Shown in pieces: positions 501 to 63,354 of a DNA stretch of 64,000 nucleotides (position 1 is the stretch's first letter; every line of letters begins with the position of its first letter). This stretch comes from Eledone cirrhosa (lineage: Eukaryota), in the NCBI GenBank assembly GCA_964016885.1, contig OZ024743.1:92008001-92072000 (forward strand), written 5' to 3'. The position numbers and the translations under genes are program-made. Below the pieces are notes generated by a model, which saw nothing but the letters and a program-made list of their open reading frames with translations, searched no databases and was not told where the DNA came from.

Positions 501-662
501 ATAGTGGTAGAACACTGGAATACGGTAATATCCGTAGTGGTAGAGCACTCAGTCCATGGGACGAGTTAGGTAGAAGTGGTTACACAACAGTTACGAGCTG
601 AGGATCCGCTAAAGTGAAACAATTGTTCTCGGTATGGTGAACTAACTGTTGTGTAACCACTT
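501..662. mobile_element. Fold-back PLE-like mini-element (tail + 20-bp inverted arms around a hammerhead-like motif)
   Basis: Arms 574-593 and 643-662 are reverse complements. The tail contains GCACTC-AGTCC-AT-GGGAC-GAGT. The element ends at TA repeats. Confidence 0.6.
594..631 (+). ncRNA. Minimal type I hammerhead-like motif (weak stem II)
   Basis: CGAG-CTGAGGA-TCCGCTAAAGT-GAAA-C-AATT-G-TT-CTCG. Stem I is CGAG/CTCG and the stem III loop is palindromic. Confidence 0.55.
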
Positions 663-705
663 ATATACATATATATAGGATAGGTTCCTGTAGCTTCTGT
701 CTTTC

Positions 706-765
706 AAAATAAACTGACACAAAATAAACTCACACAAAATAAACTCACACAAAATAAACTGACAC
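706..765 (+). repeat. 15-bp tandem repeat AAAATAAACT(G/C)ACAC x4
   Basis: Seen directly. Confidence 0.9.
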
Positions 766-1339
766 AATGGGAAGTGGGTGACCTGTGCTTCTGTGTTTGT
801 GTGTGTATTGAACATATGTGATGAGTATAAATTTATGATAGTAGGCATTTAAAAGGTTTCATCACAAATCTATAGATGTTACAGTGCATTCAGCTATTCA
901 ACTATTCAGGAACGATAACTAAATTTGATTCGACTGTTAAAGGAGCGCCGCGAGGTGGGGCGGAGCTGTTGCTGTGAGTATTGCTGGCCATTGTCGGCGG
1001 AAATGCTTTTGCGGTCTTGTCCGCGGGGCTCAGCCCAAACACCACCACGCCCTAGGCCCAGAGCCCATCACACTCTCCCCTTCCATCGCCCTTTCTTCTG
1101 TGGCCCTAGAGTCCTTGCTTTTCCCCTGCTTTTCCTCTCATGTATGGCTTTCAAAGCCCTTTCCTCTACTTTCCCACACAGCCAGATCTTCCCTTCCTTA
1201 CCCTTTCCTCCATTTTCTTATTACTTAATTTTGCTTTTCTTTCTTTCTCAAATTTATTTATCTTTTGAAAATAAACTTCCATATGAAGCAATTCACTGAC
1301 GACATATCTCCATGTCAACGACGTTTACGTCATAATCAG

Positions 1340-2680
1340 TATTGTTGTTGTTGTTACTAATGTTGTTGTTGTCATTGTCGTTATTGTTGTCGATATTATT
1401 GTAGTTGTTGTTGTTTTGTTATTATTGTTGCTGCTGCTGTCGTTGTCGTTATTGTTGTTGTTGTTGTTGTTGTTGTTGTTGTCGTTATTGTCGTTATTGT
1501 TGTTGTTGTTGTTGTTGTTATTGTTGCTGCTGCTGCTGCTGATGTTGTCGTTATTGTTGTTGTTGTTGCTGTTGCTGCTGCTATTGTCGTTGTTATTGTT
1601 GTTGTTGTTGTTGTTGTCGTTGCAGTAGTCGTCGTCGAAGTTGTAGTTGTTGTTTTTGTTATTCTAGTTATTATGAATCTTAACACCTGTAATACCACCA
1701 CCACCACCACCATCGCAACCACCACCACATCACCATCACCACCATCACCATCGCAACCACCACCACCACCACCACCACTACCACCACCACCACCACCATC
1801 GCAACCACCACCACCACCACCATCGCAACCACCACCACATCACCATCACCACCATCACCATCGCAACCACCACCACCACCACCAACCACTACCACCACCA
1901 CCACCACCACCATCGCAACCACCACCACATCACCATCACCACCATCACCATCGCAACCACCACCACCACCACCACCATCACCATCACCACCATCACCATC
2001 GCAACCACCGCCACCACCACCAACCACAACCACCACCACTACCACCACTACCATCACCACCACCGCCACCACTACCACCACCACCAACATCGCCACAACC
2101 ACTACCACCAACCACCACCACCATCACCACTATCATCACCACCACCGTCATCATCACCATCATCATTATCATCATCATCACCATCATCATCATCATCATC
2201 GTTTTCACTGCAGTCATCAATTAATACTCTCGCAATCACCATTACTAATTTCATTATCGCCAGCACCACCACCAGCACTACGTCGCCACTACCACCACTA
2301 ACACCACCACCACTACTACCACTTACATCACCACCATTATCATCACCAACATTACCACGACAATCAGCATCTAAACTATCGCCACAAACACCACCACCCC
2401 AACTACCACCACTACCACCGGCATCACCACCACTACCACCGGCATCACCACCACTACCACTGCCATAATAACCACTAACAAACACAACCACTTCCAGCAA
2501 GACCACCACCACTTTCATAGCCCCCCCCCCCCCCCCCCCCCCCCCCCCCCACCACCACCACCACTATCCCCCCCCCACCACCACCACCACCACCACTATC
2601 ATCCCCTCCACCACTTTCATCCCCCCCCTACCTACCCCCCCCCACCACCACCACCACCACTATCATCCCCCCTACCACTA
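1340..2680. repeat. Compound trinucleotide low-complexity tract (GTT/GCT, then CAC/CAT, poly-C)
   Basis: Seen directly. It explains the poly-T/V/P/H ORFs. Confidence 0.95.
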
Positions 2681-2797
2681 ATACATTCCATCTGTGTATA
2701 GAAGAAAAAAATCTAGAATCACAAAATTCCAAAAAAAAATGTTTAAATAATTATTTGATGTATGTTATGTTTGTTCAGTTTTACCTGACACCATGCA

Positions 2798-3250
2798 CTT
2801 CTTCTTCTTCTTCTTCTTCTTCTTCTTCTTCTTCTTCTTCTTCTTCGCCCACTTATGCCTGGGAGGGCAGAATCCTCAAGCACGCCTTCCGGCGGGCCCT
2901 ATCGAATGCAACCGTCTCTAACTGATCCTGCTGGATCCCCAAGACCAGCCAACCTGTTGGTTTTGCCCGTAAAATCTGTCCAGCGATTCTTTCCTGAGAC
3001 ATTCTAACAACAAATCCGGAATATCGCAGCTGTGATCTCTCAATTCGGAGACGTGGAGACGTAGCTGCTCTACATAGAGTAACACTCTGATTTCCGAGCT
3101 ACGCACTCTATCGAGTAACGTGACTCCAAGAACCCTTCCAAGGAACCCTATTTCAGCCACTTTTATTCTTTCGGCCCTTAACCAAGATTAAGGTTTGCAC
3201 AAATACCGAATGAAAGATAGCTAGTTTGGCATTTACACGTACCTCCCTAT
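2798..3250 (-). mobile_element. RTE-clade LINE 3' fragment with (GAA)n tail
   Basis: Minus-strand translation EIGFLGRVLGVTLLDRVRSSEIRVLL resembles an RTE C-terminal region. (TTC)n at 2798-2846 forms the tail. Confidence 0.7.
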
Positions 3251-60428: not shown

Positions 60429-61334
60429 TGGTGGTTAAACAATAATAACACACTATAAGAACAATAACGACAATAACAGCAACACATACATACACACGCA
60501 AGCACACATACACACACAAGCACACACACATACAGGCACACACATGCACACACACACACACGCGTACACACACATGAACACACACACACACACATACACA
60601 CACACACATACACACACATACAGCACAGGCATACACACACACAGAGGCAGACACCATCTCTGGATACGCTAAATACCAGTCTTTCATAGAAAATTCGGAC
60701 GCGTTTCATGCAAAATGAAAATAGAAAAACATGGTTGTGTGTGTGTGTGTGTGTGTGTGTGTGTGTGTGTGTGTGTGTGTGTGTGTGTGTGTGCGCGCGT
60801 GTTTATGTGTGCGTCTTGAGGATGCATCACGGTTAAGAAGTTGGCTTAGCAATCATAGAATCCCAAGTTCGATCTCCCCCCCTCCCCTCCTCATGGTATC
60901 AGAGACGCGTGTTTTTCACCACAGCCTCGGGTCAACTTATGCTGTGTGAAGTGAAATTAGGTAGACGTAAACTATTCGGAAGCCCGTCAGGTCTACGGTA
61001 CCTGTAATTTAAAGAGCTAGCCTTGTCAAACAGCGTCCCGCCGAATTTTCATGAGAATTATCTTAGCAGTATTTGTGTATGCAGGATGCTCCGGCTGTTA
61101 CGTTGATCAGACTGTCGTGTATTGAACTCGTATTGATTGTTATCTAACAAATGCCGTATAATTATTTAATTATTTAACGACAGCCAATCATATCATAATC
61201 ACGTGTTTTAAGTGTGCTCATGTTTTTTTGTCTATATATTATGCTTCAGTTAAACGGGAGTACACAATTCTATCCAACAGGTTTGAAGTAGTCTGACGGT
61301 TTGAGGAGTACACAATTTTTGTCACCACGGAATT

Positions 61335-61615
61335 ACGTTCGCCATGCTTTGCGGCACAGAGTTACGGCCCTTTGCGGTCTGAGTTCAAATCCCGCCAAGG
61401 TTAACTTTGCCTTTCATCCTTATGGGGTTGATAAAATAAAGTACCGGTAATGCACTGGGATAATTGCTGGCATTGTGCCAAAAGTAGAAACAATTATTAT
61501 TTTCTCGCTTCCGAGGTTAATTTTGCCTTTCATCCTTACAGGGTCGATAAAATAAAGTACCAGTTACACACTTAATCAACTTTCCCTTCCCTCCAAATTG
61601 TTGGCCTTGTGCCTC
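61335..61615 (+). mobile_element. Meta-like tRNA-SINE plus a partial second copy
   Basis: Same consensus, plus strand. Confidence 0.75.
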
Positions 61616-61994
61616 AGTTCAACAGTTCAACAGTTCAACAGTTCAACAGTTCGACAGTTCAATAGTTTATTGTGTTTCATTGTGTCTAAATAGAAATGTA
61701 TAAATTACCGTCGAAACCGGTGGAGATCCACACCATTTCAATTCAGTAATACATCGAACAACTATAACACTTATGGTTTAAAGTGACGGAGGTCCTTTCC
61801 ATATCAGGTGTGCGTGTTCTAAAGAAGAGAGAGTAGAGTGACGAGGGAGAAAGGTACTGACGCCAACCTTGAGCAAGTCTCAACTTGTTCAGTTCCTGAT
61901 TGTTCTGGCGGGAAACTAATTGATTTGGTTCTGATCTGTATTCATTTCATTATCATTTCGTCTTAGACCCTGGAAACATGAGCTCACATGATGA

Positions 61995-62540
61995 CACATA
62001 CATACATACATACATACATACATACATACATACATACATACATACATATACATACATACATACATACATATATACATACATACAGACAGACATACAGACA
62101 TACATACATACATACATACATACACGTGCATACATACATACATACATACATACATACATACATACATACATATATACATACATACATACATACATACATA
62201 CATACATACATATACATACATACATACATACATACAGACAGACATACAGACATACATACATACATACATACACGTGCATACATACATACATACATACATA
62301 TACATACATACATACATACATACATATACATACATACATACATACATACATACATACAGACAGACATACAGACATACATACATACATACATACACGTGCA
62401 TACATACATACATACATACATACATACATACATACATACATACATACAGACAGACAGACAGACGCATTCACACACATATACACATACGCACATATACACA
62501 CTCACATACTACATACACATACACACATTTACATACACTA
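61995..62540. repeat. Long compound (TACA)n microsatellite
   Basis: Seen directly. Confidence 0.9.
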
Positions 62541-63164
62541 TTGTACTTATTAGGTACCAAAACTGAAGTGGATTTCTCTTTCAGAACCTGTGTTATCTGT
62601 AAAATAATGTGTGAGTGATTAGCAGGAATGTGGGGTGTACCTACCCTGCGTGGGGTAAATGGTGGGGGTAAATGGTGGGGGTAAATGGTTTTTATATTTT
62701 ATATTATATCTTGTGTTTTATAATAATTTTATACTTATTTCATGTTTTATATAAATTTCATCTGTCTATTGTATTATATCCTTAAATTAATAAATCTGCC
62801 TTCCTAACAACAACTCATCCCCGACCGGTCCTTTAAGACCTTCACAAACAACAACTCATCTCCGACCGGTTCTTTAAGACCTTCACGGGGATACTCCTTT
62901 GATAATGAGCTTTTAAACCCGAAAATATTTGGGATAATAAAATTTGCTAAGGTAAAATTCTATCGTTATCTTGGCACCTTCTAATGCATTGTCGAGCTTT
63001 TAATATTATTTAAAATGATATTCCCTATTCAATAATGCTTGAAACAAACTACAACACTGTTATATATATATATATATATATATATATATATATACATATA
63101 TATATATATATATATACATATATATATATATATATATATATATATATATATATATATATATATA

Positions 63165-63354
63165 TAACGAAGGAAATGTGGTAAGGAACCAGGTGGACCA
63201 TAACGCACCAAAGTACTCAATACTTAGGGTAGTAGAGTGGGTAATAGGAACCAGTAAGACCCCGACGGCTGAGCTCAAGCCGTTTCGACGGCTAATTCAG
63301 AATTAGCCGTCGAAACGGCTTGAGCTCAGCCGTCGGGGTCTTACTGGTTCCTAT
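63165..63354. mobile_element. Family A mini-element with perfect 55-bp-arm palindrome
   Basis: 63244-63354 is a perfect palindrome centred on A63299. Tail at 63165-63243. (TA)n on both sides. Confidence 0.85.

Follow-up and report, generated by a model that had tools for sequence, protein, structure and literature searches.

Minimal fold-back insertions in (TA)n tracts of Eledone cirrhosa: putative ends of Hydra-clade Penelope-like elements, probably made from two short cDNAs

Octopus bimaculoides harbors a Penelope-like element (PLE) of the Hydra clade, Hydra-1_Obim, which is 2507 bp long and associated with (TA)n (Craig et al., 2021, PMC8557442). A length below 3 kb is a tendency of this clade rather than a strict criterion (PMC8557442). 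In an anole PLE, reverse transcriptase (RT) initiates at two internal sites, one at each boundary of the tail, and extends both strands, with uncleaved RNA as template (Frangieh et al., 2024, PMC11167929). Promoters within the pseudo-long terminal repeats (pLTRs) of such elements are known (PMC2377424, PMC3846280, PMC6765202), and a U3-A8 variant of the hammerhead ribozyme has been described from PLEs of Schistosoma (PMC4209133). In the accessible portions of these accounts, the origin of the head-to-head repeats, the one-sided tails and the role of the hammerhead are posed as open questions (PMC8557442, PMC11167929, PMC3846280). Here, we describe a 64,000-nt stretch of the Eledone cirrhosa genome (assembly GCA_964016885.1, contig OZ024743.1, positions 92,008,001 to 92,072,000, forward strand; “the window”), in which small fold-back elements, typically two inverted arms around a short centre with a tail on one side, lie in or next to (TA)n runs.

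Judged from their sequence, these fold-backs are almost certainly the pLTR ends of autonomous PLEs. They probably arise anew, when two short complementary DNAs (cDNAs) run off the predicted capped 5′ end of a PLE RNA. Families are labeled A to D, E (0.5 kb), F (32.3 kb), G (36.9-38.1 kb), H (36.3 kb) and P1 (1..387); genome-wide matches and fetched loci (L-numbers) come from the 3.0-Gb assembly. A 331-nt stretch upstream of the A arm retrieved 30 loci, several of which carry GIY-YIG and RT sequences on the same strand (L102, L118). In long copies, tblastn likewise places RT and endonuclease (EN) upstream on the same strand for D (L150), E (L242) and G (L097), in the last case between inverted arms. 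For family B, whose exact 27-nt core has 13,394 matches in the genome, an intact frame of 758 residues is flanked by two pLTR copies (L309), and arm and tail run in frame into the open reading frame (ORF; L201, L213, L221). Window positions 38214-38122 correspond to residues 1-31 of the L309 frame at 90%, which identifies the B tail as the element’s own 5′ leader. The relatives of this ORF are ~700 aa long and many contain PF26215, while the GIY-YIG domain of the B ORF itself is matched by Pfam below threshold only. An earlier note on this DNA, made from the letters of the window, had attributed the mini-elements to PLEs and their mobilization to PLE enzymes, and both attributions are borne out for A, B, D, E and G, whose arms continue upstream into RT/GIY-YIG ORFs. 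The expected match of tails and arms to the termini of full-length PLEs is found in the same five families; for C and F, long upstream-extending copies were fetched and no collinear ORF was found in them. What does not stand is the proposal of separate families of tiny non-coding retroelements, since five families reach coding parents and the centres vary from copy to copy.

As judged by their motifs and by insertion into (TA)n, the parents are members of the Hydra clade; the elements are thus new members of a known clade, in an extreme minimal form. The motif set of this clade (RWK-like, DKT, a CxCx5C linker, no CCHH, CxxC and CxH around E and N) is complete in B, lacks only CxxC in P1 (L092), and is present as fragments in A, D, E and G. 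The type-I hammerhead in the pLTR that marks EN-positive PLEs is found as well, in A and P1 in the U3-A8 form, and so are pLTRs formed by partial tandems, an inverted truncated copy and an optional tail (L201, L213, L221 with L220). “Poseidon” was tried as a label for the parents and dropped, as the motifs fit the Hydra clade. The short length typical of the clade is not seen in B, which is ~6 kb long and has a microsatellite-rich 3′ untranslated region (UTR). In L309 and L304, ~3 kb of mixed TA/TG microsatellite separate the ORF from the 3′ pLTR; family B may thereby spread microsatellites. P1 is a young family, with 150 scored genome matches at 96-100% and an open frame of 852 residues in L092. 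This family ends at either of two fixed 3′ positions and includes inverted copies, some tailed and some tail-less: the same plan at kilobase scale. Pfam gave no match for the GIY-YIG fragment of the window or for the P1 and G proteins, and a homologue search with the 71-aa GIY-YIG fragment found none.

The outer ends of the fold-backs are fixed and bounded by TA repeats. In 60 arbitrarily placed 10-kb stretches (600 kb, where fuzzy matches may double-count a few ends), 24 of 27 matches to the tail end are followed by (TA)3+, as are 33 of 34 ends of arms to which no tail is attached, compared to 3.1% (8-nt gap) and 6.6% (22-nt gap) of random positions. The predicted enrichment of (TA)n at the junctions is hence present, with the correction that (TG)n takes the place of (TA)n on the left side at 0.5, 18.6 and 35.4 kb. 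Conversely, at least 458 of 1248 unique sequences adjoining (TA)n runs are recurrent repeat ends. Two fixed outer ends bound the tail in P1, A, B, D and E, and these match the two RT start sites of the anole PLE (Frangieh et al., 2024, PMC11167929). All of ten start-site examples continue with T and eight with TA, and such bases could pair with (TA)n at a nick. A search for empty sites of 283 insertions yielded eight candidates, all of them TA-to-TA artefacts. The description of the elements as ribozyme-processed does not survive, because the outer ends correspond to the two RT start sites, and the inner ends lie at the ribozyme cut in only 2 of 117 tail-bearing copies.

Instead, the inner ends accumulate at one position per family, referred to as the wall: the 4-nt window, chosen by script, in which arm 5′ ends stop at the highest rate. 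For A, 14 of 51 copies stop within the ~117 nt of tail and arm, and 26 of 52 in a single such window upstream. The peak window falls on an initiator-like YYANWY motif in A (26/52 at risk), B (27/41), D (9/14), F (11/19) and G (11/31); with a background of 0.032 per position, five matches in six families have a probability of ~1e-4. A TATA-like box lies ~30 nt upstream of the wall in B, with a CCAAT further up, and a TATTTA at the same distance in A and F. The full-length B copy in L309 begins 3 nt before the wall motif. Relative to the GAAA of the hammerhead, the wall lies 18 nt upstream in A, 25 nt in B, 113 nt in D, 33 nt in F and 25 nt in G. Among 69 fold-backs, 2 extend past the wall by more than 10 nt and 8 by 4-10 nt, and of the first 100 A arms in the genome, ~24 (counted by eye) continue through it. 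Of 19 arms ending exactly at the wall, 15 have a G directly 5′ of it, a position occupied by T or C in the parent (p ~5e-5 vs 1/3). Reverse transcription of a cap would give such an extra G. We infer from these positions and motifs that the wall is a predicted capped transcription start. Separately, 3-4 of 100 A arms are followed at the wall by consecutive A residues on the cDNA strand, a hint of untemplated tailing, and the E pLTR in L234 contains, upstream of its hammerhead, two transcription-factor-like motifs, which we take to be NRF1-like and ETS-like and which suggest a TATA-less promoter.

The fold-backs are also individual in their centres and consistent in their arms. Among fold-backs met by chance, all centres are distinct (28/28 in A, 20/20 in B), and there is no fixed internal sequence common to copies of the kind expected for miniature inverted-repeat transposable elements (MITEs) or short interspersed elements (SINEs). 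The tail is attached to exactly one arm in 27 of 28 A and 17 of 20 B copies, and never to both. Arms of A differ at 2.6 of 38 nt within a copy, compared to 6.6 between copies, and subfamily variants recur in both arms of one copy. Likewise, the first 100 A matches include 20 head-to-head pairs spaced 31-69 nt apart (spacing read by eye), the next spacing being at least 2.5 kb, and 19 of the 20 share a haplotype. Which arm reaches further 5′ is evenly divided: 10 versus 11 copies in A (12 equal) and 6 versus 8 in B (4 equal). As either arm may extend further, neither is a DNA copy of the other, and both were copied from RNA; it is quite likely that two RNA-templated cDNAs contribute to each fold-back. 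Different families are joined head to head in 4 of 182 TA-bounded fold-backs (0/22 in an arbitrary set, 4/160 elsewhere), and three of the four come from a pattern-selected set. In L061, L075 and L081 (~1363-1650), H is joined head to head with A, and H breaks at the same initiator-like site. Recurrent joining explains this copy pattern, to which some secondary copying may add.

The resulting hypothesis is that the GIY-YIG endonuclease would nick both strands of the symmetric (TA)n target, upon which RT would begin at the two internal sites flanking the tail, aided by pairing of 1-3 nt (T/TA/TAT). Both cDNAs would end at or short of the capped start, which lies in the pLTR at a distance of 60-190 nt, and many would acquire a C opposite the cap; their 3′ ends might then be joined head to head via 0-3 nt of microhomology, one of them often after trimming. 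The template could be the 5′ end of full-length RNA or a short pLTR-driven RNA, and longer templates would give kilobase-sized inverted PLE copies by the same process. Since the predicted A start lies inside hammerhead stem II, the A stubs lack the core. A more far-reaching idea, which we put forward tentatively and consider doubtful at present, is that PLEs replicate in an LTR-like manner: strong-stop cDNA from the tail sites would jump to the 3′ pLTR via an R-like stretch between start and hammerhead cut, thus rebuilding the promoter, and the fold-backs would be failed jumps. If so, they would represent tens of thousands of fossil replication intermediates, the job of the PLE hammerhead would be to make the RNA 3′ end, and the position of the A start inside the ribozyme would let only the 3′ copy cut.

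Several observations weigh against the run-off of two cDNAs from a capped start. Both start and cap are predictions, as is hammerhead cleavage in these elements. In E, the peak window (at -82) has no initiator-like motif, and for H none is defined. The A wall is soft, as 18 of 26 arms passing it end within 40 nt, and B arms mostly end 1-3 nt inside the motif, only 10 of 57 retaining its AG. The samples of B and F were in part fetched by patterns requiring an intact core. The extra G may come from the partner arm, and a C directly after the wall, found in ~14 of 76 A stops (read by eye), is no more frequent than by chance. For one tail per fold-back to hold as a strict rule, the two cDNAs would have to be coordinated on a single RNA or dimer. 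Moreover, one centre is not unique: that of the A copy at 63.2 kb has 485 genome matches, ~1% of the 46,642 exact A arms. Finally, the wall reads YAG, as a splice acceptor does, in A, B, F and G.

The last point introduces the strongest of the alternatives, namely that the wall is a splice acceptor or a pause of RT at the hammerhead, with priming from two sites otherwise retained. In D. virilis, an intron ends at the 5′ end of helix I (PMC4209133), and in B, F and G the wall lies at or beside the 5′ edge of stem I. However, D has no AG at its wall, an upstream exon end with GT is matched by only 3 of 212 stopping arms, and most stopping arms join their own antisense arm or tail, which argues against splicing. 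A pause would call for a structure common to the families, but the A wall lies in distal stem II and the D wall ~70 nt upstream of the core. We therefore regard this explanation of the wall as unlikely.

Could the fold-backs instead be self-propagating mini-retroelements, in which the whole unit is transcribed, cut by its ribozyme and copied by PLE enzymes? Non-autonomous PLE derivatives have been described (PMC8557442; bioRxiv 10.64898/2026.07.22.740005), and the copy at 63.2 kb behaves accordingly: all 40 scored matches are full length at 98-100%, and all 26 parsed of 30 have TA-rich flanks. Yet its repeated centre accounts for the small share of A arms given above and occurs with two different symmetric arm haplotypes, unselected centres all differ, the ends avoid the cut site, and the stubs lack the upstream promoter motifs. 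Propagation as a unit is thus improbable as the general source of the fold-backs. No more probable is self-priming, in which one cDNA or antisense RNA folds back and is copied (PMC3846280). Near-perfect palindromes with centres of 0-3 nt and the agreement of arms within copies would be expected from it, but the tail-less arm often carries 5′ sequence absent from the tailed arm, and vice versa (e.g., at 19.8 kb), which one hairpin cannot produce, and the rare joins of two families argue in the same direction. TA-targeting DNA MITEs or Helentron-like elements, finally, share terminal inverted arms, small size, high copy number and TA flanks with the fold-backs, but are contradicted for A, B, D, E and G by ORF continuity, and hammerheads, one-sided tails and variable centres also speak against them, so that such an origin, which the earlier note had named as the outcome that would speak against it, can be put aside with near certainty.

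Masked self-BLAST located elements of this plan at all positions for which they had been claimed, with corrections, and others besides:

1..387, minus strand: P1, a 5′-truncated autonomous Hydra-clade PLE with a stop-broken part of GIY-YIG.
501..662, plus strand: E (0.5 kb), with inverted tail of ~70 nt, 20-nt inverted arm, hammerhead at 598-627, arm and TA.
9457..9621, plus strand: TA-bounded PLE end with hammerhead at 9525-9570, absent from the earlier note.
18637..18781, no strand assigned: older B copy, tail and fold-back, the core gone at the centre.
18818..19013, plus strand: A, with inverted arm, centre, arm and 78-nt tail.
19091..19681, plus strand: C, with arms of ~200 nt (19091-19492), a tail of ~190 nt and a hammerhead with long stem II.
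19795..20217, plus strand: D, with inverted 89-nt tail, 45-nt inverted arm, long tail-less arm and hammerhead at 20114-20168.
32348..32500, plus strand: F, with inverted tail, short inverted arm and a hammerhead with decayed GAAA.
35402..35571, minus strand: A of a divergent subfamily, tail and fold-back.
36276..36525, minus strand: H PLE end with hammerhead at 36385-36341, absent from the earlier note.
36895..38112, plus strand: G, with inverted tail and arm, centre of ~950 nt, arm, and a U4A-variant hammerhead at 38046-38086.
38127..38311, plus strand: B, with inverted tail, inverted arm, hammerhead at 38250-38288 and arm.
40365..40454, no strand assigned: A, a 42-nt tail fragment head to head with one arm.
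44476..44800, no strand assigned: tail-less D fold-back with hammerhead at 44578-44524 (minus strand).
44924..45096, plus strand: A, with short inverted arm, arm and tail.
45212..45318, no strand assigned: A, a tail fragment and an arm beginning exactly at the wall.
63167..63352, minus strand: young A copy, a near-perfect fold-back with tail.

Most A sites are fold-backs as stated, except that no inverted arm is present at 40.4 and 45.2 kb. The proposed tail length of 55-90 nt fails for C (19.1 kb), whose ~190-nt tail lies on the right side. The GIY-YIG fragment reported at 29-260 is present, but it lies on the minus strand, belongs to P1 and is parent to none of the mini-elements; the 3′ UTR, the U3-A8 hammerhead and the tail of this P1 copy are situated to the left of the window. 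Both arms of the tail-less D fold-back at 44476..44800 end at the initiator-like wall, and family G, a larger version of the same plan, had gone unnoticed.

The hammerhead motifs were confirmed with a structural type-I descriptor, which found 7 strict cores in the window and none in each of 60 block-wise dinucleotide shuffles (9 versus 0 with position 4 left free). They start at 598 (plus strand, E), 20114 (plus) and 44578 (minus; both D), 38250 (plus, B), 9525 (plus), 36385 (minus) and 44244 (minus), the last three being additional to those of the earlier note. The last lies in a repeat at 43942-44408 (minus strand; hammerhead 44244-44179, with an 8-bp stem I and a long stem III), of which no further copy was seen among the fetched loci. 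In an Rfam scan of the window, no hammerhead is among the 150 of 244 matches listed, which comprise only microsatellite and hairpin microRNA artefacts. A core had been claimed for every family but A. This is correct for E, D, the B copy at 38.1 kb and C (stem II ~85 nt, read by eye), but not for the B copy at 18.6 kb, which has no core, or the F copy at 32.3 kb, in which GAAA is decayed. Nor is A without a hammerhead: its parent contains the full U3-A8 variant, in the order stem I, U3-A8 core, long stem II, GAAA, stem III and GUC site, and the stubs begin within stem II, so that the 5′ half of the ribozyme is absent. Folding of A stems II and III gave z -2.5, with three of five short folds equal to or worse than shuffles. 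A CUGANGA upstream of the A arm was rejected as the parent ribozyme, as all of its 39 matches are junction by-products.

Different PLE families form chains parted only by TA runs at 18637-20217 and 44476-45318, which is expected if each insertion leaves targets for later ones. Inverted arms of 213 nt beside TA runs, ~600 nt apart and with a (TG)n array inside (41037-42060), are probably another PLE family. A 161-nt direct repeat (98%) at 32516-33176 is bordered on its two outer sides by (TA)n and contains a CUGAUGA on the minus strand, and its TA-adjacent end recurs 14 times in the fetched loci; a short fold-back with a TA-rich centre lies between TA runs at 31804-31889. The remaining repeats comprise an abundant SINE-like unit of ~190 nt, often in tandem pairs (5023-5215, 7209-7634, 9903-10320, 20330-20525, 43687-43882, 53873-55295, 60034-61614), longer interspersed repeats at 20996-25029 and 49310-52068 (71-81% identity) and at 11996-12601, 17763-18368 and 27084-27430 (96-98% identity), and a degenerate 8-nt tandem array of 178 copies (46135-47517).

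In the genome of E. cirrhosa, PLE insertions of minimal size are available in very large numbers as a natural sample, together with an intact young ORF. From this sample, predictions at nucleotide level can be derived for start positions, the cap signature and the use of one start site per strand. If run-off from a capped start is correct, the stubs would give a clue to copying by a poorly understood class of retrotransposons. For annotation, it matters that such stubs resemble MITEs or unclassified SINEs.

In L1 twin priming, two primers on one RNA lead to an inversion, and LTR strong-stop synthesis gives a short cDNA by run-off at the capped 5′ end. In the process proposed here, by contrast, both primers would start at internal positions that are fixed, they would copy overlapping regions, and a symmetric microsatellite serves as target. 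The clade, the ribozymes, the TA preference, inverted copies, tails and opposite-strand hammerhead pairs are already in print. Within the open-access literature, no account of twin priming, strong-stop or start-site run-off in PLEs was found, nor of the wall, the rule of one start site per arm or a promoter inside the A ribozyme. A 2026 repeat annotation of Octopus vulgaris reports 31 Penelope-like families with recent activity as well as 65 MITE families and many SINEs left unclassified, and its accessible part does not describe the present fold-back structure (PMC13282606).

Minimal PLE hammerheads (Cervera and de la Pena 2014, PMC4209133) share with the present ones type I, a palindromic stem III and the U3-A8 variant, and pairs on opposite strands, 100-700 bp apart, were ascribed to truncated PLEs. 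The available text leaves the position of the fold-back centre unexplained, whereas in E. cirrhosa the centre is linked to a position resembling a promoter, and A stubs contain half a ribozyme. The Penelopes of Adineta vaga (Arkhipova et al. 2013, PMC3846280) likewise have an inverted pLTR, an optional tail into the ORF and TATA/initiator-like motifs; for them, self-priming on an antisense template was proposed, whereas the copy statistics in E. cirrhosa favor two cDNAs templated by sense RNA. Non-LTR retrozymes (bioRxiv 10.64898/2026.07.22.740005) are also small non-coding hammerhead repeats from PLE pLTRs, but they form head-to-tail tandems with two same-sense ribozymes, in contrast to single head-to-head insertions here; no head-to-tail hammerhead arrays are found within the window. 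Poseidon PAc (Frangieh et al. 2024, PMC11167929) agrees in its two internal start sites bounding the tail, in the cutting and extension of both target strands, in the unprocessed RNA template and in a predicted dimer. It differs in having no reported homology between start site and target, unlike the T/TA start that faces (TA)n here, and the accessible account does not address inverted copies, in which we find one start site per arm. The closest relatives are the Hydra-clade PLEs (PMC8557442), to which Hydra-1_Obim belongs and to which the present families are likened by description and motifs only. Both have a single RT-GIY-YIG ORF with RWK-like, DKT and CxCx5C motifs and no CCHH, hammerheads, (TA)n insertion, an inverted truncated copy and a tail at either end. 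That survey found few families outside cnidarians and tails of 30-40 nt, and its accessible portions describe neither a mass of minimal fold-backs nor a wall of 5′ ends; E. cirrhosa, in contrast, has at least six families, whose copies number in the tens of thousands and whose tails measure 60-190 nt, and a B element of 6 kb.

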